Source of the DNA: Promethearchaeota archaeon
GTDB lineage: Archaea > Asgardarchaeota > Lokiarchaeia > Sigyniarchaeales > SOKP01
Direction: 5' to 3'
NCBI GenBank assembly: GCA_029838195.1
Contig: JALGVJ010000004.1
Span: 64,001 to 128,000 of the forward strand
DNA: 64,000 bases
The notes below the pieces were generated by a model. That model was not told the DNA's origin and ran no database searches. It saw only the letters and a list, made by a program, of their open reading frames with translations. Position 1 is the first letter of the stretch. Each line of letters begins with the position of its first letter. Both the position numbers and the translations under genes were made by a program. Positions 20,020 through 58,969 of this stretch are shown here, one piece after another.

Positions 20020-20619
20020 ATGAACGAAAATTCGAAGAAAAAAAACCAGATCGCCATTACTGGGGAAAAGCTCGGTGTTGTAGAGGAATTCTTACCCGAT
20101 AAATATTCAACATATGTGAAAGATGGAGAAATTCGTGCCTCAAAAACGGGCATGATACAACTTAATAGAAAAAAATGTAAAATCGAGATTGAAACCCATC
20201 AAAGCGACCACAGGAAAAGCGTGCGAGAAGGCGATGTTGTTTTTGGCACGGTCGCTTTTATAAGAAAATATTCTATTGGAGTAATTTTTTATACAATTAA
20301 CGGAAAATTATTACTTAATTCTCCCTACATGGGCAACATCCACGTTTCCCAAATTTCTCACAAGTATGTAGATAACATTTCTGAAGCGTTCCAGCTCACG
20401 GATATAATTAGGGCTAAAGTAGTGGCTAAAGAAGGCACTGAGTTTTCCCTCAGCACGATTGGAAAAGAATTTGGCGTGGTCCACGCAGATTGCATCATTT
20501 GTGGAGATGCTTTGGAAAAAATTGATTATAATAAATTGCGATGTCCGCGATGTGGACACGTGGAAACTCGAAAATTAGCGGATGATTATCGAAACGTACA
20601 TCACGCCTTACGATTTTAA
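20020..20619 (+). CDS. csl4: Exosome RNA-binding protein Csl4
   Basis: GEKLGVVEEF, S1 domain (IHVSQIS...DIIRAKV), C-terminal zinc ribbon (CIICG...CPRCGHVETRKLA). Confidence 0.92.
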   Translation: MNENSKKKNQIAITGEKLGVVEEFLPDKYSTYVKDGEIRASKTGMIQLNRKKCKIEIETHQSDHRKSVREGDVVFGTVAFIRKYSIGVIFYTINGKLLLNSPYMGNIHVSQISHKYVDNISEAFQLTDIIRAKVVAKEGTEFSLSTIGKEFGVVHADCIICGDALEKIDYNKLRCPRCGHVETRKLADDYRNVHHALRF

Positions 20620-20711
20620 ATTCTTAAAAATTCATTAACTATTAAATTATTATTATAAATCCCCTTGGTTCTTTTTTATATTCATGTAAATTATTGAAAA
20701 TAAAACGTATT

Positions 20712-20942
20712 ATGAAAAAAACGGGCAAAAAAATATTAAATTATTATAATCATAGTCATTCTCTCGAAAATATAATCAAATTCCTTGAAAGTATCCAAAA
20801 AAAGGTAAATTTCTTGGATCTAAACGTGTTGGTAGAGAGAAACGTTATTAGAGTGACGCTATATGGCCCTCGCGATTTACAATCTTTAGCCATAGAAAAA
20901 TTAAATGAGCTTGCTAACATGTTGTTAAAAAACCCCCCTTAA
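20712..20942 (+). CDS. Small hypothetical protein, possibly resembling the N-terminal part of DUF2067
   Basis: 76-aa ORF between csl4 and rpoL, a slot that DUF2067 occupies in Thermococcales. The family assignment is from position and loose pattern only. Confidence 0.5.
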   Translation: MKKTGKKILNYYNHSHSLENIIKFLESIQKKVNFLDLNVLVERNVIRVTLYGPRDLQSLAIEKLNELANMLLKNPP

Positions 20943-21024
20943 TTTGCATGCTTTAGAAGGAACCATAAAAAATTTATTGAAAATAGTATTAATTTACATA
21001 ATTCCATTATCAATTCCACTTATC

Positions 21025-21525
21025 ATGGCAAAGAAAAAGAAAAAGGACTTGAATGAAGATCTCGAAAACGATCTCGAATTTAGCGCAGATGTCCCGATCG
21101 AAAGCGTGTATCCTAGCATTAAAGAACAACCCTCCGAAAAAGAAGCAGCAAAAGCAGAAAAAGACGATGCCACCATCGAAACAATTCCCGAGGTAGAATT
21201 AGAAGGAGCGCTAGAGGAAGAAGGACCGGAAAAACCAAAATATAAATATTTAGATCTTCACCTCTTAAAAGATCCCGAATTTAATAACTATGAATTAACT
21301 ATTGAAGGGCAATCTCACGGATTCTGCAACTTATTGGTAAAACACTTGTTACAAACCGAAGGCGTTATTTCCGCCGCCTATAAATCTACCGAACTCGAAC
21401 CCTCTAAAGTATTCATCCAAATTCGGGATAATTTTGATATTAAAACCATTCTTCAAAAAAGCATCGGATCTTTTCGAGAAGAAGTTACTAGTGCCCAAAA
21501 ATTATTCGAACAACTTCTCAGGTAA
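21025..21525 (+). CDS. rpoL: RNA polymerase subunit L (Rpo11) with an acidic N-terminal extension
   Basis: ELTIEGQSHGFCNLL...GVISAAY matches the RpoL/RPB11 core; lies in the csl4-rpoL context. Start placed at MAKKKKKD. Confidence 0.85.
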   Translation: MAKKKKKDLNEDLENDLEFSADVPIESVYPSIKEQPSEKEAAKAEKDDATIETIPEVELEGALEEEGPEKPKYKYLDLHLLKDPEFNNYELTIEGQSHGFCNLLVKHLLQTEGVISAAYKSTELEPSKVFIQIRDNFDIKTILQKSIGSFREEVTSAQKLFEQLLR

Positions 21526-21583
21526 TTATATCTTCTCTCTATTTTTACCAATTTTAACGTGTTTCATAAAATACCGCACTCCC

Positions 21584-22036
21584 ATGTCATACAAATTCTT
21601 GCTTCAAGACCTTCAAGAAACCCCAATATCAATTGGAACGGATAAAGGCCTCGCCAAAATTGGAGATGCCCTTGTAAATCTCTCTTATTCCATTGCTAAA
21701 TCCATCATCATGTCTAAAAATAATGATACTAATAAAATCATCCGAACGGGTACTAAAGTCAGCAAAGAAATCCTCTCCAATGCGTTAAAACAAGCAGGCT
21801 TGAAATATTTTGCCAAAAAAAGAGCGGATGCTCATGACATGGCAAACACCGTAGAAGCAATTCTCGCTTATCTATGGTTGAAAAACGCCATTTCCTTGGA
21901 CGAGATCGTCTCTTTCTTGTCAGAACACTTGAAAGGTAATTTGTCAAATAGAAAGGATGAAATCGCCATTGCCATTCAAGCCTTCAAAAATCTCCTCCTC
22001 CACGTCAAATCTTCACTACCCACAAATACCCCGTGA
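21584..22036 (+). CDS. Archaeal RNase III-like domain protein
   Basis: TDKGLAKIGDALVNL and ANTVEAILAYLWL resemble the archaeal Ribonuclease_3-like family usually found downstream of rpoL. Confidence 0.75.
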   Translation: MSYKFLLQDLQETPISIGTDKGLAKIGDALVNLSYSIAKSIIMSKNNDTNKIIRTGTKVSKEILSNALKQAGLKYFAKKRADAHDMANTVEAILAYLWLKNAISLDEIVSFLSEHLKGNLSNRKDEIAIAIQAFKNLLLHVKSSLPTNTP

Positions 22037-22051
22037 AAAAGGCACCTCCCA

Positions 22052-22612
22052 ATGAAAGATCATCCCATCACCATCGGCATTGATGATTCCCCATTCCACT
22101 TTGATGATGCCTCCAGAAAAACCTCCCTCATTGCCGTGGTCTGCCAAGGTACTCGATTAATGAACGTATTGAAAGCTTACATAACAATTGACGGAAATGA
22201 CTCCACCTCAACCATCATACACCTCGTTAAACAAGCAGAAAAACACGTCCAGTACATCCTCCTCGATACAATCACCTTCGGAGGATTTAATATTTGCGAC
22301 CTTGCCACTATTTACCACGAAACCCATAAACCCGTCATTGCCGTGAGTGAAAAAAAAATTGACTTGGACGGCGTGAAAATGGCTCTCCTTAAGAAATTCC
22401 CCAGCACCTACCATGAAAAATTATATAAAATTATCAACGCTGGAAACCTTTTTGAAATAACTATTAAAACGGCAGGAGGGCCATCCACGATCTACCTCCA
22501 CTTAAAAGGAATCTCCTTAAAAGAAACAAAATCTTTATTAGAAAAAATTTGTATCGACTCTAAGCTCCCGGAATGCATTCGCATGGCTCACATCATCGGA
22601 AGAGCCTTGTAA
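22052..22612 (+). CDS. DUF99 family endonuclease V-like protein
   Basis: IGIDDSPF, IDGNDST, LLDTITFGGFNI, PECIRMAH. Confidence 0.85.
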   Translation: MKDHPITIGIDDSPFHFDDASRKTSLIAVVCQGTRLMNVLKAYITIDGNDSTSTIIHLVKQAEKHVQYILLDTITFGGFNICDLATIYHETHKPVIAVSEKKIDLDGVKMALLKKFPSTYHEKLYKIINAGNLFEITIKTAGGPSTIYLHLKGISLKETKSLLEKICIDSKLPECIRMAHIIGRAL

Positions 22613-22701
22613 AATCTTTTGACGCATTATGAGACCAAGTCTACTTCCCATCTTCCACCTTTAACTTCCTGAAGATGTACTTCCCTTGATTCCCCCTTAA
22701 T

Positions 22702-23205
22702 TTAATTAGAAATCTCCGCCTCTAAGATGGACTTTATCTTATCCCTCATCTCTCGCCGAATCGCCGACATTCCATAGGTTTTTATCCCCAATCTAGCTTG
22801 TACCTCATCCACGCTCATCGCCCCTTCCAAATCTTGCTTGTTTGCAATCGCAATCACCCGTGAACCCAATTTTCTCGAATATCTCTGGCAAATCTCCCGT
22901 GTTTTCTCCACATTACCCTCCGTAGAATCACATACCAATACCGTCAAGCCTACGCCCCTTAAAAAATCTTCCCATAAAAATTTAAACCGCTCCTGACCCG
23001 ACATATCCCAAATAGCACACTTTACCCCATTTAATACCGAATCCTCGATCTCCACGCCAATCGTCGGAGATTTCACGCTTTCTTTCCCAAGTAATAAGCC
23101 AACTAAGGTAGATTTACCTACCCGACTCTCTCCTATGAACGCAATTTTGCTCTTTCCTAACCCCATCCCTTCTTTCTCCCCACTTGCTCCTTCATTTTTC
23201 ATCAT
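22702..23205 (-). CDS. Arf-like small GTPase
   Basis: G1 GESRVGKST, G2 PTIG, G3 WDMSGQ, switch II FKFLW, G4 ANKQDLEGAMS, G5 MSA. Confidence 0.88.
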   Translation of the reverse strand: MMKNEGASGEKEGMGLGKSKIAFIGESRVGKSTLVGLLLGKESVKSPTIGVEIEDSVLNGVKCAIWDMSGQERFKFLWEDFLRGVGLTVLVCDSTEGNVEKTREICQRYSRKLGSRVIAIANKQDLEGAMSVDEVQARLGIKTYGMSAIRREMRDKIKSILEAEISN

Positions 23206-23710
23206 TTATAATAAATCGAATGACTATCAAAAAAGTAAATAATATCCGTGTATTACTCTTCGCTTTATCATTTATTTCCCCCATTTTCTATCAACTCACA
23301 TTTCCTCGTATCCTCCACGGTCTGCTCTCCTCTCAACCAATCTTACACCTATTCTCTCCATGATTTCACCCAAACTTGAACTACTCCTAAAATAGAAAAA
23401 TAAATGATTCAATTAATACATTAATTAATTTAATTAATAGATCTATTAAAAAAAATAAATGAATGAAAAAATAACACACTTAGCCATAAAACTTTCCAAA
23501 AAAGTTAATCCAATAAGAAAATTACCATGCCTCCACAAATCTGTATTCTTCTTTCAAAAACCCTAAACCTCATACCCTCTCAAGAGCATGAATTCCCTTG
23601 GTTCAAGCCTAAAAAAAGAAAAATAAAAATAGAAAAATGATAAAAATGAATCTCCTTAATCGTAAGAATAATAGAAAGAAAAAATTTTTATTATTACATG
23701 AGGCTGCCAA

Positions 23711-25015
23711 TTAACCCGTAACAATATCCTTTACAATACCCACGGCTACAGTCCTCCCCATATCCCGAATTGCAAAACGTCCCATCTCTGGAATCTCCTC
23801 ATATTTCTCAATGCAAAGCTTCTTGATCGGTTTGAACTTCACGATAGCTGACTCGTTCTTCTTAAGAAACTTTGGATTATCCTCAATAACGGCTCCCGTC
23901 TTTTGATCAAGTTTTTTCATCAGCTCCACGAATTTCGCCGCCACCTGTGCCGTATGAGCATGTATCACCGGCGTATACCCTTGTGCAATCGCCGTAGGAT
24001 GCCAAATCACGATGATCTGGCCCACCCACTCACCATTCGGTGTGATTACCGTGGGCGGATTGTCCGGATGACCAATGCAATCTCCACGCCCCACATCCTT
24101 CATCTGTAATCCACGAATGCTAATGCCGATATTGTCTCCGGGTATCGCCTCAGGAATCTCCTCATGATGCATCTCGATAGACCTTACCTCTCCTTGAAAC
24201 TCCGTTGGCATTATGATAACTTTATCTCCCTTTTTCAATACACCTGTCTCCACCCTGCCTACCGGAACTACACCCGTACCCTTGATCTTATACGCATCTT
24301 GAATGGGCAACCGCAACGGCTTGTCAATCGGCTTCTCCGGCACCTCAAACTTGTCTATCGCCTCGATTAACGTCGGTCCATCATACCACGGCATCTTATC
24401 CGATTTAGTCGTCAGATTTTCCCCTTTCAATCCGCTAACGGGAACGAAATGAATTTTCTTTATCGGAAATCCTATGTTCCGCAAGAGTTGCGAAACTGCC
24501 TCCTTGCACTCGTTAAATCGATCCTCACTATACTCATATGCATCCGCCTTGTTGATCGCCACCACTAATTGCTTCACCCCTAATGTCTGAGCTAAATACG
24601 CATGCTCCCTCGTCTGCCCGTTTGCTGCTATTCCCACTTCCATTTCTCCTTTTTTTCCAGAAACGACAAGCACCGCAGCGTCCGCCTGGCTTGCGCCCGT
24701 TATCATGTTCTTAACAAAATCGGCATGCCCGGGAGCATCGATAATGGTAAAGTACTTGCTCGGAGTTTCGAATTTTCGGAAAGCAAGATCGATGGTAATG
24801 CCTCTTTGGCGCTCCTCTTTTAGTCTATCGAATACATATGCGTAGGACCACGAATCTCTATCGTATTCTTTTGCGATTTTTTCGAGCTCTCTTGCTTCTC
24901 TTTCCGATACAGCGCCAGTTTGTATGAGAAGAGCGCCCATCATTGTTGATTTGCCGTGGTCGATGTGTCCGATGATGACGAGGTTAAGATGGGGTTTTTC
25001 TGTTTTAGACGACAT
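23711..25015 (-). CDS. tuf: Elongation factor 1-alpha
   Basis: GHIDHGKST, RGITID, DAPGH, NKAD, GRFAIRDMGRTVAVG. Confidence 0.98.
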   Translation of the reverse strand: MSSKTEKPHLNLVIIGHIDHGKSTMMGALLIQTGAVSEREARELEKIAKEYDRDSWSYAYVFDRLKEERQRGITIDLAFRKFETPSKYFTIIDAPGHADFVKNMITGASQADAAVLVVSGKKGEMEVGIAANGQTREHAYLAQTLGVKQLVVAINKADAYEYSEDRFNECKEAVSQLLRNIGFPIKKIHFVPVSGLKGENLTTKSDKMPWYDGPTLIEAIDKFEVPEKPIDKPLRLPIQDAYKIKGTGVVPVGRVETGVLKKGDKVIIMPTEFQGEVRSIEMHHEEIPEAIPGDNIGISIRGLQMKDVGRGDCIGHPDNPPTVITPNGEWVGQIIVIWHPTAIAQGYTPVIHAHTAQVAAKFVELMKKLDQKTGAVIEDNPKFLKKNESAIVKFKPIKKLCIEKYEEIPEMGRFAIRDMGRTVAVGIVKDIVTG

Positions 25016-25111
25016 TTATCTTCCACTAAATTTGTAATTTTAATTGATATAGATAAAATTTGATTCAGAATGTTAAAAATATACAGTTGATATTGTAATT
25101 AAATGATAAGG

Positions 25112-25128
25112 AATATAAATTTTTTTCG
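25112..25128 (-). promoter_or_regulatory. Putative BRE + TATA box of the EF-1alpha promoter
   Basis: The minus strand reads CGAAAAAAATTTATATT about 100 nt upstream of the tuf ATG, matching the archaeal BRE-TATA layout. Confidence 0.55.
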
Positions 25129-25387
25129 ATATTTTTTTAAATTTTTAGGTTGAGAGAGGGGAGGAGAATAGATTTCGGATTTTTTTGAGTTTCTAAGGTC
25201 CGAGAAAGTGATGTTTATGAAAATCATGAGAGATTTTTAAGGTTTTTTGAATTTGAATTCAAAATTGGATATTAAATTATTATTGACATCTTTTAAAAAA
25301 TGATCAATTTTAATCGCGTGCTGATGTAAAAAATAGGAATTTTGCTTCCATGATGTATGTATTGAACACGTTCATTTATTAATAAAT

Positions 25388-25807
25388 TTAAGAAATTTGC
25401 GAATTTCCTTTCAGATCTTCCAGGAATTCTTTTTTATTCTTTTTAAGGAGCGAAAAGATATCGTTAATTTCTCGAGTGAAAGAGATAATTTCGTGATTGT
25501 TTAACATGAAACGAGGAGGAATTTTTTTGAAAAGGAATTCCCGAAAAACGGAATCGAAGTCATATATATTGACCCTTGTTTCTCGAAAGAAATCCAGTAG
25601 GTGATGGAGGTACAATGCTTTGACATGGATATATTGGGATGAGAACTTTTTTTCCTTGTCTTTCTTGTAAAAATATTTTAATTGTCTGAGGGGAGTAGGG
25701 TCGTTTTCATTATAATAAAATTTCAAAGAACTTAAATTTTCATGTAAAAAAGATGATAAAAGTAAAAAGAGATACGATCTTAAATATATTAAATAGAATA
25801 ACTTCAT
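25388..25807 (-). CDS. Hypothetical protein
   Basis: 139-aa ORF from ATG 25807; the longer track ORF overlaps aIF2-alpha. No recognisable motif. Confidence 0.4.
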   Translation of the reverse strand: MKLFYLIYLRSYLFLLLSSFLHENLSSLKFYYNENDPTPLRQLKYFYKKDKEKKFSSQYIHVKALYLHHLLDFFRETRVNIYDFDSVFREFLFKKIPPRFMLNNHEIISFTREINDIFSLLKKNKKEFLEDLKGNSQIS

Positions 25808-25843
25808 GTTAATTATTTTGATGGTGATAGGAGAGGAATCATC

Positions 25844-26659
25844 ATGGTACGGTCTCGGACGAAGTTTCCATCGGAAGGGGAGTTTGTAGTAGCGCGAGTG
25901 AGAGAGATTCAAGATCAACACGTATACGTGGATTTGTTGGATTATGAGGGATTAGACCATGAAAAAACGGCACGAGGAATGGTCCACATCTCAGAGATAA
26001 GCTCTAGATGGGTGAAAAACATTCGAAATTATCTTCGAGAGGGGCAACGAGTGGTCTTACGTGTTTTACGAGTAGATCCCGTGAAAGGTCACGTGGATTT
26101 ATCTTATCGGCGAACGAATTCTGCCCAGCGAGAAAATCGCATGAAAGAATGGAAATATGCGATTAAATATGAGAATTTATTACAATTTTTAGCAGAAGAG
26201 ACAAACATTACGCTAGATGAAGCCTATGACATGATTGGATGGCCTGTATTAGACATGTATAACACGTATCAAGAAGCCATTGAAGAGTTAAAGGAGAATG
26301 GAGAGGAAATCCTTAGTAAATTGAAAATTCCACCTGATATCAAGGAGAAATTTTTAAAAATCGTGGATGAAAATATTAGTATTTCTACTGTGAGCGTGAA
26401 AGGCAGGATAAGGCTTACGATTCGAACGGGAGATGGGATTGAGAAATTAAAAAACATTTTATTAGAAGCAATGAAAGTGATTGACAATCCAAAACCAACG
26501 AGGAATTTAAAGTTAATTTATTTAGGTGCTCCTTATTATAAAATAGAAGTGATTTCAAAAGATTATTTAGATGCGGAAAACATTTTATCGGAAGTTTTAG
26601 ATACCATAGAATCCAAGGTGAAAGAAGTGGATGGTGTATTTGAGTTCATTCGTGATTAA
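25844..26659 (+). CDS. eif2a: Translation initiation factor aIF2 alpha subunit
   Basis: FPSEGEFV, S1 domain HISEISSRWVKNIR, KGHVDLS, YLGAPYY; SD-like GGAGAGG upstream. Confidence 0.95.
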   Translation: MVRSRTKFPSEGEFVVARVREIQDQHVYVDLLDYEGLDHEKTARGMVHISEISSRWVKNIRNYLREGQRVVLRVLRVDPVKGHVDLSYRRTNSAQRENRMKEWKYAIKYENLLQFLAEETNITLDEAYDMIGWPVLDMYNTYQEAIEELKENGEEILSKLKIPPDIKEKFLKIVDENISISTVSVKGRIRLTIRTGDGIEKLKNILLEAMKVIDNPKPTRNLKLIYLGAPYYKIEVISKDYLDAENILSEVLDTIESKVKEVDGVFEFIRD

Positions 26660-26697
26660 CTACACCATTTATAAAAAATAAGGATAAAGGGGACAAA

Positions 26698-26907
26698 ATG
26701 GTAAAATATCTCATGAAATGCCCGAATTGTGGAGAATATAGATTATACAACCCCGAGATGAGATGTAAGAAATGTGGAAGCGTTTTAATCAATCCACGTC
26801 CGGCGAAATTTTCTTTAATTGATAAATACGGCAAGCATCGATTGCAATATTTTAAAGAGAAATATCCACGCCCCGCTTTGGAGGAACAACCATCAAAAGC
26901 TAGTTAA
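26698..26907 (+). CDS. nop10: H/ACA RNP protein Nop10
   Basis: CPNCG...CKKCG zinc ribbon and PAKFSLIDKYG; follows aIF2-alpha. Confidence 0.9.
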   Translation: MVKYLMKCPNCGEYRLYNPEMRCKKCGSVLINPRPAKFSLIDKYGKHRLQYFKEKYPRPALEEQPSKAS

Positions 26908-26933
26908 TCCTTTCTTTTGTTGAACTTGCCTTC

Positions 26934-27707
26934 TCATTCCTTGATAAGAGGTTCTGCGAACTTTTCTGAAATTAATATTTTCGCATTTTTAAAAGGCAAG
27001 CATGCGATATCTTCTTTTTCAAAAGGTCCATAGTTTAATAGATCAATTCCTACTAATGCAGGAGTTTCTTTTAAAAATCTCACGATCATATATTCCTGTT
27101 TTTCCTCTTGTTCTAATTTTTGAGAAGGAAATTTAGAAAGGACGCCTTCTTTGATGATCTCTACATTTGGGGTGGAAGTAGAAGGGGCTAAATGGGAAGG
27201 CGGAAGACTAGATGGAGAAGAAGAGGGCCCAACTTGAGAATTCTTTTCAAGAAGCGTTTTTTCAGACAATTCTTCCTTCTCAATGCCTTTTTGAACGGTT
27301 TTAGAGGATACGAGCTGAGGAACAGGCATTTCTTGTACGATCTCGTGAAGCGAATGACGTAATACTTTTTCATATCCTTTTAGCGAACTCATGATGTTTT
27401 GATACAATAATTTTTCGGGTTCAATGAGAGCTTTTAAGTCAAGTTCTTGTAAAGAGAGAGCCGCATCTAAAATTTTTTGTTTTCTTAATTCAAGTAAATC
27501 ATCAAAAAGAAAATCGAAATTATTTTTAATTACTTCAAAAACATAAGATTTTATTTCATCCTCATGATTTAATTGAAAATTTTGAAGAAATGATTTACTA
27601 TTTTTGAAGCGTTTAAAATCTGCGTCCGTTAATGGGAATATGTTCTCATTTTCTAACTCTTTTAACCATCGCTCATACAAGCGCTCATATTCTGATTTGA
27701 TATTCAT
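26934..27707 (-). CDS. GINS complex subunit Gins15
   Basis: Helical A domain, Ser/Pro-rich linker, C-terminal B domain VRFLKETPALVGIDLLNYGPFEKEDIACLP; downstream of priS. Confidence 0.85.
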   Translation of the reverse strand: MNIKSEYERLYERWLKELENENIFPLTDADFKRFKNSKSFLQNFQLNHEDEIKSYVFEVIKNNFDFLFDDLLELRKQKILDAALSLQELDLKALIEPEKLLYQNIMSSLKGYEKVLRHSLHEIVQEMPVPQLVSSKTVQKGIEKEELSEKTLLEKNSQVGPSSSPSSLPPSHLAPSTSTPNVEIIKEGVLSKFPSQKLEQEEKQEYMIVRFLKETPALVGIDLLNYGPFEKEDIACLPFKNAKILISEKFAEPLIKE

Positions 27708-27808
27708 GGATAAGGTTCAAGTTCAAGAATAATTTAAATCTAACCCGCAAGAAATTACGCCAACCATTATTAGTATAATGGAAGGTAAACTACTTAAACA
27801 TATTTGAA

Positions 27809-29086
27809 TTAAATGGTTATTGCCACCTCCTTACTGAGAAAGAATACGGCTACATGATTGGGAACTTCTATAATTGCATCTTTGGTGTAGGGTCCATAGG
27901 TTTCATTTTTCATGGTAATTATCGGAACTTTTGGGACTGTGATTTTTAATTTTTGAAGATTATCACTTTCAAATACGATTGGATCAAGGGTTTCATCATT
28001 TTCATTTAAAGGATCGAAGTCTTCTAATTGTTCGTGGGAAAGTTCTGAAACTTTAAAACCCGTTTTTCCGTGTAAGGAGCCCGGATAACGTATTAACCGA
28101 TGGATATCTATTGAAACGGGTTGATCAATCTCCACTGAGATTTCTTTTACTACTGCTTCTAAAAATTTTTTCCATCGACTCATTGTCATGTGTTCAATAT
28201 TCCATATATTAGTTTCATCCTTGTAGATGACAGATAAAAGGTGATTTCCATTTCGCATGAAAGCATCTGCTATATTAGCACTAAATCCTACTTTTCGTTT
28301 ATCCGTTAAAAAAGCTTTAATCTCAGAAGGAGATTTATTTAATAAATCTTCAATGAATTGCAAAATTTTTCTTGACCATCCAATATTGGATTTGGATAAT
28401 CCATAAATGACACCTCCTTTTTCATTTAACCCAAGTAATTCAAGAGTGAGATTTTCACCCGTAAGATAATCCACGATTTCTCGTCTTTTTTCACTGGATA
28501 ACATGCGCAATTTTTCATCTTCTAATTTCACGTGATAGCCCCGATGTCCTGAAAAAGCACATTTTATTCTGGATTCTTCAATTCCAAAATCAGGAACAAG
28601 AAAATGATTAATTACTTTGAACACTTCTTTTTTAGCCTCGTTAAGACATCGTTTACAGATCCACGTGAGGGTACTTAATTTAGGACTTCCGCATTTTTTA
28701 CATGTATTTACCATTCCCTTGCCTTTAGCACCGCAACTTTTACAATACCAAAGGTCATGATTTTCTTTACAAGGTGTATAAAAATGATCCACATCAATAT
28801 CTATTAAAAAATCACAGCCCTTGTATTCTTTTTGATTCATGTCTTGATTCTCTGGATAATTATATAAAGAACCGCTGGCATACACGTGTCTTGGGCTCTT
28901 TTCAATTAAAAAATTTTTTAATTCTTCTTCAGATTCAAATCCCACGTGCCTGATCATCATGGGCTTTTCCCACGGGATAAATCCAAATTCTCTCTGTTGT
29001 AATGAATTGATGGTTGGGAGTTCACTTTTCTTTTCTTGATAATAAGCCTTAAATAATCGTTGTAAAAATATTTTAGAAGATGTCAT
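27809..29086 (-). CDS. priS: DNA primase catalytic subunit PriS
   Basis: REFGF, DIDVD, FSGHRGYH, DIHRLIRYPGSLHGKTG; Cys-rich zinc insert; GINS-B-like C-terminal domain. Confidence 0.95.
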   Translation of the reverse strand: MTSSKIFLQRLFKAYYQEKKSELPTINSLQQREFGFIPWEKPMMIRHVGFESEEELKNFLIEKSPRHVYASGSLYNYPENQDMNQKEYKGCDFLIDIDVDHFYTPCKENHDLWYCKSCGAKGKGMVNTCKKCGSPKLSTLTWICKRCLNEAKKEVFKVINHFLVPDFGIEESRIKCAFSGHRGYHVKLEDEKLRMLSSEKRREIVDYLTGENLTLELLGLNEKGGVIYGLSKSNIGWSRKILQFIEDLLNKSPSEIKAFLTDKRKVGFSANIADAFMRNGNHLLSVIYKDETNIWNIEHMTMSRWKKFLEAVVKEISVEIDQPVSIDIHRLIRYPGSLHGKTGFKVSELSHEQLEDFDPLNENDETLDPIVFESDNLQKLKITVPKVPIITMKNETYGPYTKDAIIEVPNHVAVFFLSKEVAITI

Positions 29087-36868: not shown

Positions 36869-37312
36869 GTGAATACGATCGGAAAAACGAAAGGCCTATA
36901 TGCTGCAAGAAAATTAAAAAATAATCGCAAGAAATTTCGATGGTCAAAATCTAAATATAAAAGAAAAAAATTGAAATTAAAGCAAAAAGTAGACCCTTTA
37001 GAAGGTTCACCTCAAGCTACGGGTATCGTTCTCCAGAAAGTGGGGAGAGAAAGCAAGCAACCCAACTCTGCGATTCGAAAATGTGTCCGTGTTCAATTGA
37101 AGAAAAATGGAAAAGGAATTACTGCTTTTTTACCTGGTGATGGTGCATTAAACTTTATAGATGAACATGATACCGTACTTGTAGAAGGAATTGGAGGATC
37201 AAAAGGAAGAAGTATTGGAGATCTTCCCGGAGTTCGATGGAAAGTAGTTAAGGTAAATGGTGTCAGCTTGGAGGCTCTAATTAAAGGAAAGAAAGAGAAG
37301 CCCATCCGTTAA
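36869..37312 (+). CDS. rps12: Ribosomal protein uS12; start is either GTG 36869 or ATC 36878
   Basis: [35 protein letters not shown]. No in-frame ATG near the start. Confidence 0.96.
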
Positions 37313-57709: not shown

Positions 57710-58969
57710 ATGACCCTTGACAGCAAAAAAATTGAGGCAATTGAAAATTTAGAAACTGAACAAATTCCTTTTGGCTTAACCAAAGAACAGATATTTTCTA
57801 ATAATTTAAAATTAATTGCTAATAAATTAATTAATCTTGAGCATCATAAAATACAATTTTCTGAATTATTATTAAAAAATTTAGATAAATTAGATTTTTC
57901 AGATTTCGTGGATGATCCTTATTTTCTTATCAAGGAAAAAAGAATCAAAACGCGCGTGGAAGCTTCCAACATTTATGGATTGAATTATGCCTGCGTGGAT
58001 GGAAGTTCAGTTCTGAAAAATTTTATGAATATCGATTTCTCTTTTTTGAAAGCTATCGTTGTCAAATATTATTTCAAGGATAATTTTAATGCCGACATCA
58101 GCTATTTTCCAGATTTAAATGGATTTAATAACTATGCCATCGAGGGCAATTATTTAAACACTGAAGAGCAAGTGATGGATGCTAAAGTCTCCTTGGATTT
58201 GAGATTCATGGAATTAAATCTACTCAATGAATTGCTTACCAGAGAATCAGATATAGATTTAATCATTATTGATGGTTCGATCTTAATTACTCCCATCAAT
58301 CTAATATTTTCTAAAAATTACGAAATTTCCCAGACATACGATAAATTATTACAAGAATACCAAAAATTATATTATAATTGTAAGGAAAATCGAGTTCTTT
58401 TAGTTGGGGTCATCAAGGATACTAAAACGAGTGCATTAACCAATGAACTTAGAGAAGCAATAAATTTATTGAAACCAAACACCATAAATCTCCAACATTT
58501 TCTTACTTCTAATTATCGCATACTCATGGATTATTTCACGGATCTTGATTTGTTTAATCGAGTATTAGAAAAAGGAGAGAGGAGTTGCGTTTTTAAAATA
58601 AAACGTGAAATCGATAAAATTAGGGATGATGGCATTAAAAAAGAGATTCCCTATTATTTTCCCTTAGATTTTCATGCTTTTTATCTCAAATCTGTTCGCC
58701 ATGATTTTCCCATTCGAATTGAATTTTTCTTGGAAAAAGGGAGCTCTCGAAATGATGTCATTTCTAAAGCAAATTTAATTGCTTCCTTGCTCCTTCCAAT
58801 ATCGAGCTGTAATGAAAATTATGCGCTTCCCATACCTCAGATTGAAGCTCATAAAAGAGCTACTTTTAAACCATCAGAAATTGATTTTCTTTTTAATAAC
58901 CTTGTTAGATCCTTACATAAACATGGTCTACAATTGGTGGAAAAAAGAAGAAACAGAAGACCTTTTTAA
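57710..58969 (+). CDS. NurA-family 5'-3' nuclease
   Basis: ACVDGS, IIIDGSI, GVIKD, PIRIEF, YALPIPQIEAHKRA. Confidence 0.82.
   Translation: MTLDSKKIEAIENLETEQIPFGLTKEQIFSNNLKLIANKLINLEHHKIQFSELLLKNLDKLDFSDFVDDPYFLIKEKRIKTRVEASNIYGLNYACVDGSSVLKNFMNIDFSFLKAIVVKYYFKDNFNADISYFPDLNGFNNYAIEGNYLNTEEQVMDAKVSLDLRFMELNLLNELLTRESDIDLIIIDGSILITPINLIFSKNYEISQTYDKLLQEYQKLYYNCKENRVLLVGVIKDTKTSALTNELREAINLLKPNTINLQHFLTSNYRILMDYFTDLDLFNRVLEKGERSCVFKIKREIDKIRDDGIKKEIPYYFPLDFHAFYLKSVRHDFPIRIEFFLEKGSSRNDVISKANLIASLLLPISSCNENYALPIPQIEAHKRATFKPSEIDFLFNNLVRSLHKHGLQLVEKRRNRRPF

Follow-up and report, generated by a model that had tools for sequence, protein, structure and literature searches.

Strand-asymmetric composition has been described in several systems. 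Human CpG-island promoters and origins show a weak asymmetry, measured over flanks of up to 1 Mb, whose numerous scattered centres lie close to transcription starts; each side has an elevated A>G rate on its outward strand, and GC is raised at the centre (Polak and Arndt 2009, PMC2817419). The mutation footprint of human meiotic break hotspots has a fixed centre and two strand-asymmetric arms, about 2 kb long, with C>G and A>G among the changes (Hinch et al. 2023, PMC7615360), and resection at these breaks reaches 1-2 kb to either side (PMC7615360). GRINS are duplicated regions whose GC skew is intense over kilobases and peaks at third codon positions; their GC and TA skew are correlated, and error-prone synthesis has been proposed for them (Nivina et al. 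2021, PMC8256042). Among archaeal origins, a Cdc6/ORB origin shows a C-to-G polarity switch with a skew step that persists for tens of kb, and it occupies intergenic DNA beside a cdc6/orc1 gene, where inverted ORB repeats flank an AT-rich unwinding element (bioRxiv 10.64898/2026.08.15.744077); the Odinarchaeum origin was picked by its local skew minimum (PMC9246712).

Here we describe a flip of GC skew inside tuf in a 64,000-nt stretch of a Promethearchaeota contig (the window). The flip is an evolutionary footprint and not a sequence element, and we read it best as the trace of DNA synthesis or repair that acts locally and in this lineage only, not as that of a classical replication origin. 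In a search of the literature outside subscription journals, we found no description of this pattern and no mapping of replication start or break repair in Asgard archaea. The features of the locus are as follows.

20600..24700, minus strand: left arm, G excess on the outward minus strand (C excess on plus), gone by about 20.6 kb
21025..21525, plus strand: RNA polymerase subunit L, oriented toward the centre, four-fold G:C 6:21
21584..22036, plus strand: ribonuclease III-like protein (PF11469), toward the centre, G:C 5:27
22052..22612, plus strand: endonuclease dU family (PF01949), toward the centre, G:C 7:34
22702..23205, minus strand: small Arf/Ras-like GTPase, away from the centre, coding-strand G:C 30:7
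23206..23710, no strand: intergenic region of the left arm, plus-strand G:C 40:104
23711..25015, minus strand: tuf / EF-1alpha, 434 aa, single copy, intronless
24682..24782, no strand: switch point of the skew (2-log-likelihood interval), tuf codons 78-112, around the G3 DAPGH motif
24780..27000, plus strand: right arm, G excess on the outward plus strand, weaker and shorter, with traces to about 28 kb
25016..25387, no strand: AT-rich region 5' of tuf, presumed promoter, plus-strand G:C 62:25, without an ORB-like repeat
25388..25807, minus strand: conserved hypothetical gene, 139 aa, no Pfam match
25844..26659, plus strand: aIF2-alpha, away from the centre, four-fold G:C 32:10
26698..26907, plus strand: Nop10
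26934..27707, minus strand: GINS15, right-arm edge, skew not significant after codon correction

The original prediction was built on six hand-counted 60-nt rows, and a recount gives identical numbers (C21/G8, C22/G5, C24/G4, G19/C3, G20/C8 and G24/C7). The last of these, row 27181-27240, is poor evidence of skew because the Ser/Pro-rich linker of the minus-strand GINS gene is encoded there. Row 25861-25920 falls within aIF2-alpha, and 25388-25807 is the conserved 139-aa gene (26 synonymous and 14 non-synonymous codon differences from the sister species) rather than intergenic DNA. The skew itself survives correction for codon and strand effects. At four-fold sites of the left arm the plus-strand G:C count is 18:82 for genes on the plus strand (p=1e-8) and 19:93 for those on the minus strand (p=2e-16). 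The right arm has 35:15 for plus-strand genes (p=5e-4) and 40:21 for minus-strand genes, the latter with p=0.10 when set against the codon baseline of the genome, and intergenic DNA changes in the same way from left to right. The arms are unequal, about -0.65 over ~4 kb on the left and about +0.4 over ~2 kb on the right, so that the independence from gene orientation that had been claimed is firm in the left arm and weaker in the right. The change-over was correctly placed inside tuf and is now narrowed to the interval given above, 230-330 nt into the gene and at the same place in the sister species. Within tuf alone, position 24,700 separates a four-fold G:C count of 12:63 on the left from one of 15:5 on the right (p=1e-6), and the sister-species tuf has 15:50 and 16:12 (p=0.002). 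The flip, confirmed at four-fold sites of both gene strands with one switch inside tuf, ranks second to third in strength across the 4.5-Mb genome (z=7.7 with four-fold sites only, 12.1 with intergenic DNA).

A chimeric join, codon bias, amino-acid composition or chance could in principle produce such a pattern, and the source genome is a MAG with 7.9% contamination in which one counted row does reflect a Ser/Pro linker. An artefact of this kind is nevertheless hardly credible. An independent contig is 99.88% identical over 12,051-32,612 and the sister species carries the same flip, which together show that the locus is not the chimeric junction that the original prediction had named as a risk; the signal lies at four-fold sites of both strands, and the same statistic is pure noise (SD 1.0) in two relatives. 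By these four observations the artefact reading is already refuted, and the conserved gene order around the locus in relatives also speaks against it. None of the listed pieces in four shallow DNA contig sets spans the switch. A strong signal is confined to this species and its sister; the remaining species of the genus shows a mere trace and the other genera of the family do not have it. The PCNA-primase-GINS genes, which the original prediction noted 2-6 kb away, are irrelevant to the skew, because relatives keep the gene order without it.

The tuf locus is one of at least 37 flips of the same polarity in the genome, as expected of one of many dispersed, short-range sites. The extra G lies on the outward-pointing strand for 3-5 kb on each side of the EF-1alpha gene, most tRNA genes (22 of 24 have a flip) and several dozen other spots, and the centres include the 23S rRNA start, actin, hdrA and glutamate dehydrogenase. 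Skew is zero by 4-6 kb from the centres and then flat (0.002+-0.007 at 10-20 kb), with no long-range step. Around tRNA genes, whose transcripts are about 75 nt, the arms are equal (+0.18 upstream and +0.19 downstream), and the shift from baseline is about the same for genes pointing toward and away from the centre (+0.35 and +0.42), so that sense transcription is not the moving agent. These data show a process that starts from fixed sites, most clearly from tRNA genes, the 23S rRNA start and tuf, extends outward for 3-5 kb in each direction and enriches the outward strand in G whatever the gene direction. Near the centres four-fold GC climbs from 0.38 to 0.46-0.51 and silent divergence is higher (0.35 vs 0.29, p=3e-7; 0.33 vs 0.28 without the tuf locus); in tuf itself four-fold divergence from the sister species is 0.54, and in distal genes 0.33. 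The proposed link to highly expressed genes holds for strongly transcribed stable-RNA genes (tRNA and 23S) and is not a sufficient rule, because ribosomal-protein operons, three of four histone-like genes and RNase P RNA have no flip. A codon-score proxy for expression was uninformative, and the MK-D1 RPKM values seen are nearly flat. As many centres also lie at 3' ends or in convergent gaps, site choice is only partly explained.

The tuf switch had been put forward as a candidate replication-initiation site. Its polarity is the one that a bidirectional origin would have if the leading strand were rich in G (PMC2817419), and the arms at the flips are symmetric and independent of orientation. 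The idea that these are true origins without ORB boxes, dispersed over transcription-linked sites where the leading strand gains G until it reaches a nearby opposing fork or until an error-prone starter polymerase is replaced, is unlikely. The genome has two cdc6 genes (contigs C69 and C86), and one flip lies directly 3' of the cdc6 gene on C86; one relative has almost no long-range skew over 800 kb, so the missing step is not fatal to an origin. Against it, the switch lies within coding sequence, neither cdc6 gene adjoins it, and no match to the ORB or mini-ORB consensus (an Asgard-specific ORB could differ) was found within 6 kb of it, in keeping with the absence of cdc6/orc1 and ORB-like repeats that had been noted. 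If decay within 4-6 kb were due to meeting forks, about one initiation every 5-10 kb per round would be needed. The would-be lagging template has neither a C>T nor a T>A excess, and the signal is missing from relatives that share both the gene order and the Cdc6/MCM set. Improbable too is the broader proposition that ORB/Cdc6 origins have given way in this lineage to eukaryote-like initiation at dozens or hundreds of sites that are linked to transcription (tRNA genes, rRNA, strong promoters) and independent of sequence; their positions would be written into the genome by an error-prone first phase of leading-strand synthesis.

Other candidate anchors were tried and rejected. The best 4-8-mers move the jump by at most 0.1, against 0.9 at tuf; Rfam gives no RNA gene for the window, nor for 19 of 20 further flip loci. 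An intron or homing site does not fit, as the jump at the rnhB intron site is negative, the rnhB intron itself does not segregate with the skew, and tuf introns of relatives sit at several positions. Conversion driven by paralogues shows a weak trend only, and tuf is single-copy. Long operons with cancelled arms would raise GC in the ribosomal operon, which is not seen. A repeat search at the locus gave low-complexity AT repeats only, and a bacterial promoter scan gave matches at chance level.

Comparison of this species with its sister (reversible model, corrected ratios, bootstrap intervals) shows that on the outward strand C>G is the most raised change (3.4 [1.8-8.2]), followed by A>G (2.1 [1.7-2.6]) and T>G (1.7 [1.2-2.4]), while G>A (0.94 [0.78-1.13]) and C>T (1.03 [0.79-1.31]) are unchanged. 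The signature is thus one of G gain and not of cytosine deamination; the gain is x1.4-1.6 across every neighbour context, and the G:A, G:T and G:C ratios are shifted by a near-equal factor of 2.2-2.3. Such an even shift, together with the raised four-fold GC, would also be expected if mutation were ordinary and outward-strand G were favoured at fixation, by weak selection or by break-initiated gene conversion (for example, if MutS resolved G-containing heteroduplex mismatches toward the donor strand, with a GC bias in addition). Variants within the species are AT-directed near centres (12 G>A vs 2 A>G, p=0.013, in a small sample that includes constrained sites) and are no denser there, a pattern more in line with a fixation bias or an episodic process than with steady mutation. 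In MAG contig L124 the sequence passes from that of this species to that of the sister between 25,741 and 25,795, as conversion might leave, but the contig may be an assembly chimera. A pure bias of the size seen would give A>G x1.5 and G>A x0.65, neither of which lies inside the bootstrap intervals; total divergence rises, and there is no motif for selection to act on; we therefore regard fixation bias as a rather doubtful explanation. Indels appeared to cluster at centres (8 of 14 vs 9 of 43 intergenic regions, p=0.017), a result not counted because the regions near centres are the longer ones; per kb the figures are 0.95 vs 0.65.

The prominence of C>G, and the nature of the loci at the centres (tRNA genes, the 23S start, tuf, actin, hdrA, glutamate dehydrogenase), could instead point to strong promoters that fire both ways, with the displaced non-template strand damaged in R-loops and a translesion polymerase inserting C across from the damage, giving X>G on the damaged strand; transcription-linked abasic sites are seen in yeast (PMC4608483). 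Divergent transcription of this kind is quite unlikely here. It requires kilobases of antisense read-through over convergent genes, coding strands are C-rich genome-wide (-0.09), and the long ribosomal-protein operon has neither skew nor raised GC. The C>T excess is absent, and the only Y-family polymerase, a DinB-sized protein of 362 aa, appears from its length to be too short for a REV1-like architecture.

The fallback of the original prediction, a localised strand-specific mutation or repair process, is the best fit among the readings. We tentatively propose, at somewhat less than an even chance, that short error-prone synthesis tracts begin in loci with strong transcription, wherever a break, stall or R-loop occurs. 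Flip loci would frequently break, stall or form R-loops, and the DNA would be re-made outward in a short tract, either as fill-in after end resection or as primed restart synthesis; given either geometry, the outward strand would be the new strand. This synthesis may misinsert dG opposite T, A and G, or escape correction, and would stop short of becoming an error-prone long-range fork. The decay of the skew by 4-6 kb suggests a tract-like scale. We know of no programmed breaks in archaea. The genome encodes NurA, DinB, PolB2 and MutS/MutL; NucS and a UDG of family PF03167 were not found in it. No lineage-specific enzyme emerged, as DinB, PolB, RNase HII, NucS, UDG, MutS, Top6A, MCM, Cdc6 and NurA are not distinctive, and none of the enzymes compared shows a gain or loss that explains the lineage restriction. 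Sequence alone gives a map of 40-90 candidate sites; with this map, a defined signature of substitutions and close relatives that do or do not show the trait, the question is testable from population metagenomes. Two practical consequences follow for Asgard genomes: a local skew minimum need not mark an origin, and in genes such as tuf or actin silent divergence and GC content can be distorted locally.

Among known systems, the tuf locus resembles the Cdc6/ORB origin (bioRxiv 10.64898/2026.08.15.744077) in its polarity switch and in an AT-rich tract 250-450 nt off, and differs from it in that the switch is intragenic, belongs to dozens of sites and is without an ORB pair, an adjacent cdc6 or a long-range step. 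As in GRINS (PMC8256042), mean absolute GC skew exceeds 0.15 (0.27-0.37). The tuf region has two opposite arms and is single-copy; 21,000-27,400 matches only itself in the whole genome, with no duplication of >500 bp at >80% identity, and there is no net TA skew (mean about 0, absolute 0.13-0.16, correlation with GC skew -0.2 to -0.5). Nor does the bias follow gene orientation or show a non-template C>T excess, as in transcription-associated asymmetry. With human hotspots (PMC7615360) the locus shares a fixed centre from which strand-asymmetric arms extend for a few kb; there, as we read it, changes fall on the resected, inward single strand (C>N and A>N), whereas here the inward strand gains C, the outward strand gains G with G>A at x0.94, and C>T is not raised. 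Human promoter asymmetry (PMC2817419) is alike in its dispersed centres, outward A>G and central GC, and the archaeal tracts differ in being strong, in ending by 4-6 kb, in including T>G and C>G and in lying on an archaeal chromosome. In geometry, the flips are closer to these eukaryotic promoter/origin and hotspot footprints than to the chromosome-wide skews of prokaryotes.

The plus-strand skew at the tuf locus switches from C-rich to G-rich within the gene for EF-1alpha, at 24,682-24,782, and in the sister species it switches at the identical place. The genes of the locus lie in this order:

First block, plus strand: rpoL, RNase III-like gene, endonuclease dU
Second block, minus strand: small GTPase, tuf, 139-aa hypothetical gene
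Third block, plus strand: aIF2-alpha, Nop10
Last block, minus strand: GINS15, priS, priL, PCNA

The original prediction had described this flip as independent of gene orientation from six hand counts of C and G in 60-nt rows, all of which were exact on recount, and the skew survives codon and strand correction. At four-fold degenerate sites, left-arm genes have plus-strand G:C counts of 18:82 when they lie on the plus strand and 19:93 when they lie on the minus strand; the corresponding counts for right-arm genes are 35:15 and 40:21, and only the last fails to reach significance against the codon baseline. On the outward strand (the one that runs 5'-3' away from the switch) the skew falls from 0.66 over the first 2 kb to 0.39 at 2-4 kb and 0.13 at 4-6 kb, and is zero farther out. 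The flip is not an artefact of a chimeric junction: it is also found in an independent contig of this species (L125; 99.88% identity over window 12,051-32,612) and in sister-species contigs (L123 and L127), which have an identical skew profile at 80-88% identity to the window. In NCBI, proteins of this sister species carry the label Promethearchaeota. Gene order at the locus is kept throughout the family. The distance from tuf to aIF2-alpha varies from 0.4 to 8 kb among relatives, and the 139-aa gene between them (25,388-25,807, minus strand) is conserved, with no Pfam match. A further MAG contig, L124 (window 24,902-28,210), follows the window's species over 143 informative sites and from there on the sister species; the change, between 25,741 and 25,795, reflects either true crossing-over or chimeric assembly.

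The flip is one of many in the source MAG (4.5 Mb in 94 contigs, the window being C22:64,001-128,000), for which 3,687 genes were called with our own hexamer-based caller. Using four-fold sites only, 37 upward flips were found at z>4 and 14 downward, the strongest downward flips being shoulders of upward ones. In 800 kb each of a same-genus genome (G001) and a same-family genome (G024) the same statistic has an SD of 1.0 and no upward flip exceeds 4; from these null rates we estimate about 40-90 detectable sites. Among tRNA genes, picked irrespective of skew, 22/24 have a flip (mean jump +0.36, permutation p<1e-5), with equal upstream and downstream arms, and 16/19 loci are positive once clusters are merged. 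Additional intron-bearing tRNA candidates likewise coincide with flips, and the 5' end of the 23S rRNA has a strong one. Further flips map within or next to actin, hdrA, TFB, SCP2, glutamate dehydrogenase, one histone gene, small GTPases, transporters and two convergent acyl-CoA dehydrogenase genes, names mostly assigned by eye from the sequence. No flip was found at ribosomal-protein operons, three other histone-like genes or the RNase P RNA, and neither divergent nor convergent intergenic regions gave a signal as a class. The expectation that highly expressed genes are the sites thus holds for stable RNAs and not for ribosomal-protein operons: strong transcription is linked to flips for stable RNAs, and may be for some protein genes. 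Divergent transcription with translesion insertion of C we consider improbable. No ORB, repeat or short motif was found to mark the centres. Of the centres at G000:C45:11,640-11,670 and C92:41,100-41,165, one has a single palindrome, which we take to resemble a type I-E CRISPR repeat, and the other a three-copy 21-nt G-rich tandem repeat. A cdc6 gene (L191, G000:C86:78,860-81,136) adjoins a tyrosine integrase directly upstream of a flip; its sister, L198, is called as two ORFs in one sister MAG.

The pattern recurs in the sister species and more weakly in the tRNA flanks of G001, and is absent at tuf in 20 relatives. Coding-strand skew in pooled relatives against that here is -0.09 vs -0.69 for the RNase III-like gene, +0.02 vs -0.66 for endonuclease dU, -0.08 vs +0.62 for the small GTPase and -0.37 vs +0.43 for tuf. 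At tRNA genes the away-minus-toward contrast reaches +0.43 in this genome (z=12.5) and +0.13 in G001 (z=3.3); three other genera are close to zero.

Several genes show structural oddities. In the RNase HII gene (L206, G000:C23, about 65,150-65,190, minus strand) a 30-nt insert between DEAGR and GSVIGP contains an in-frame TAG, and its fold resembles that of a relaxed bulge-helix-bulge intron; 7/15 family relatives have a similar insert at this very site, and G001 has none. The tuf genes of relatives at L016, L018, L053, L057, L069 and L083 carry short inserts that form hairpins, close to codons 8, 20 and 420; these are probably tRNA-type mRNA introns, and the window's tuf has none. The S12 ribosomal gene (window 36,869-37,312, plus strand) is flanked by minus-strand S7 and NusA-like genes (names by eye), an apparent single-gene inversion within the str operon.

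GC skew usually arises from cytosine deamination. Near centres, G on the outward strand is raised 1.4-1.6-fold in all neighbour contexts, A, C and T are each reduced, and four-fold-site GC reaches 0.46-0.51. In alignments of seven loci with the sister species, skew is equal in the two (+0.40) and silent divergence is 0.35 near centres vs 0.29. Comparing the two species under a reversible model gives outward-strand rate ratios (near/far, corrected) of 2.1 for A>G, 1.7 for T>G and 3.4 for C>G, and 0.94 for G>A, 0.77 for G>T, 1.0 for C>T and 1.6 for A<>T. As C>T is unchanged while A>G, T>G and C>G are raised, deamination is ruled out as the driver. There is no T>A excess near centres. A fixation bias by itself does not fit within the intervals; it would need a local rise in mutation as well. 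Biased conversion, too, we consider improbable. Polymorphisms near centres, a small sample, number 12 G>A vs 2 A>G at a density that is not raised, opposite in direction to the substitution rate ratios.

The agent must have a fixed start point, act bidirectionally over 3-5 kb, be blind to gene direction and sequence context, and add G to the outward strand or C to the inward one. If a break, stall or R-loop were to start short DNA synthesis, the outward strand would be newly made on either side. We tentatively rank such synthesis first for this geometry and for its suitable length, although we hold it with less than even confidence. Real origins, with leading-strand synthesis outward from centres, have identical geometry but would have to initiate very densely or switch polymerase, and seem rather unlikely; the proposed replication-initiation site at tuf is compatible in geometry, has no adjacent cdc6 gene and gave no match to the ORB consensus within 6 kb. 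If resected single strands were damaged in the way known from human hotspots, the polarity would, by our reading of PMC7615360, be the opposite. No gene gain or loss in ten replication and repair families follows the trait. NucS was not found in the 25 genomes searched, nor PF03167 uracil-DNA glycosylase in this genome and 13/15 family relatives; MutS, DinB and endonuclease dU are retained (family f1). This genome has three NurA-family matches (window 57,989-58,744; G000 C87 and C89) and most relatives one. Its MCM (C38; 1,141 aa) matches the domain in separate pieces, as would be expected if it contained an intein.

Our literature search found no published account of a short, tRNA-centred, two-armed gain of G in an archaeon. 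Membership tests place the flips neither among Cdc6/ORB origins nor among GRINS, the duplicated, intensely GC-skewed regions. In behaviour they resemble the asymmetries, likewise dispersed and bidirectional, at promoters, origins and hotspots of eukaryotes.
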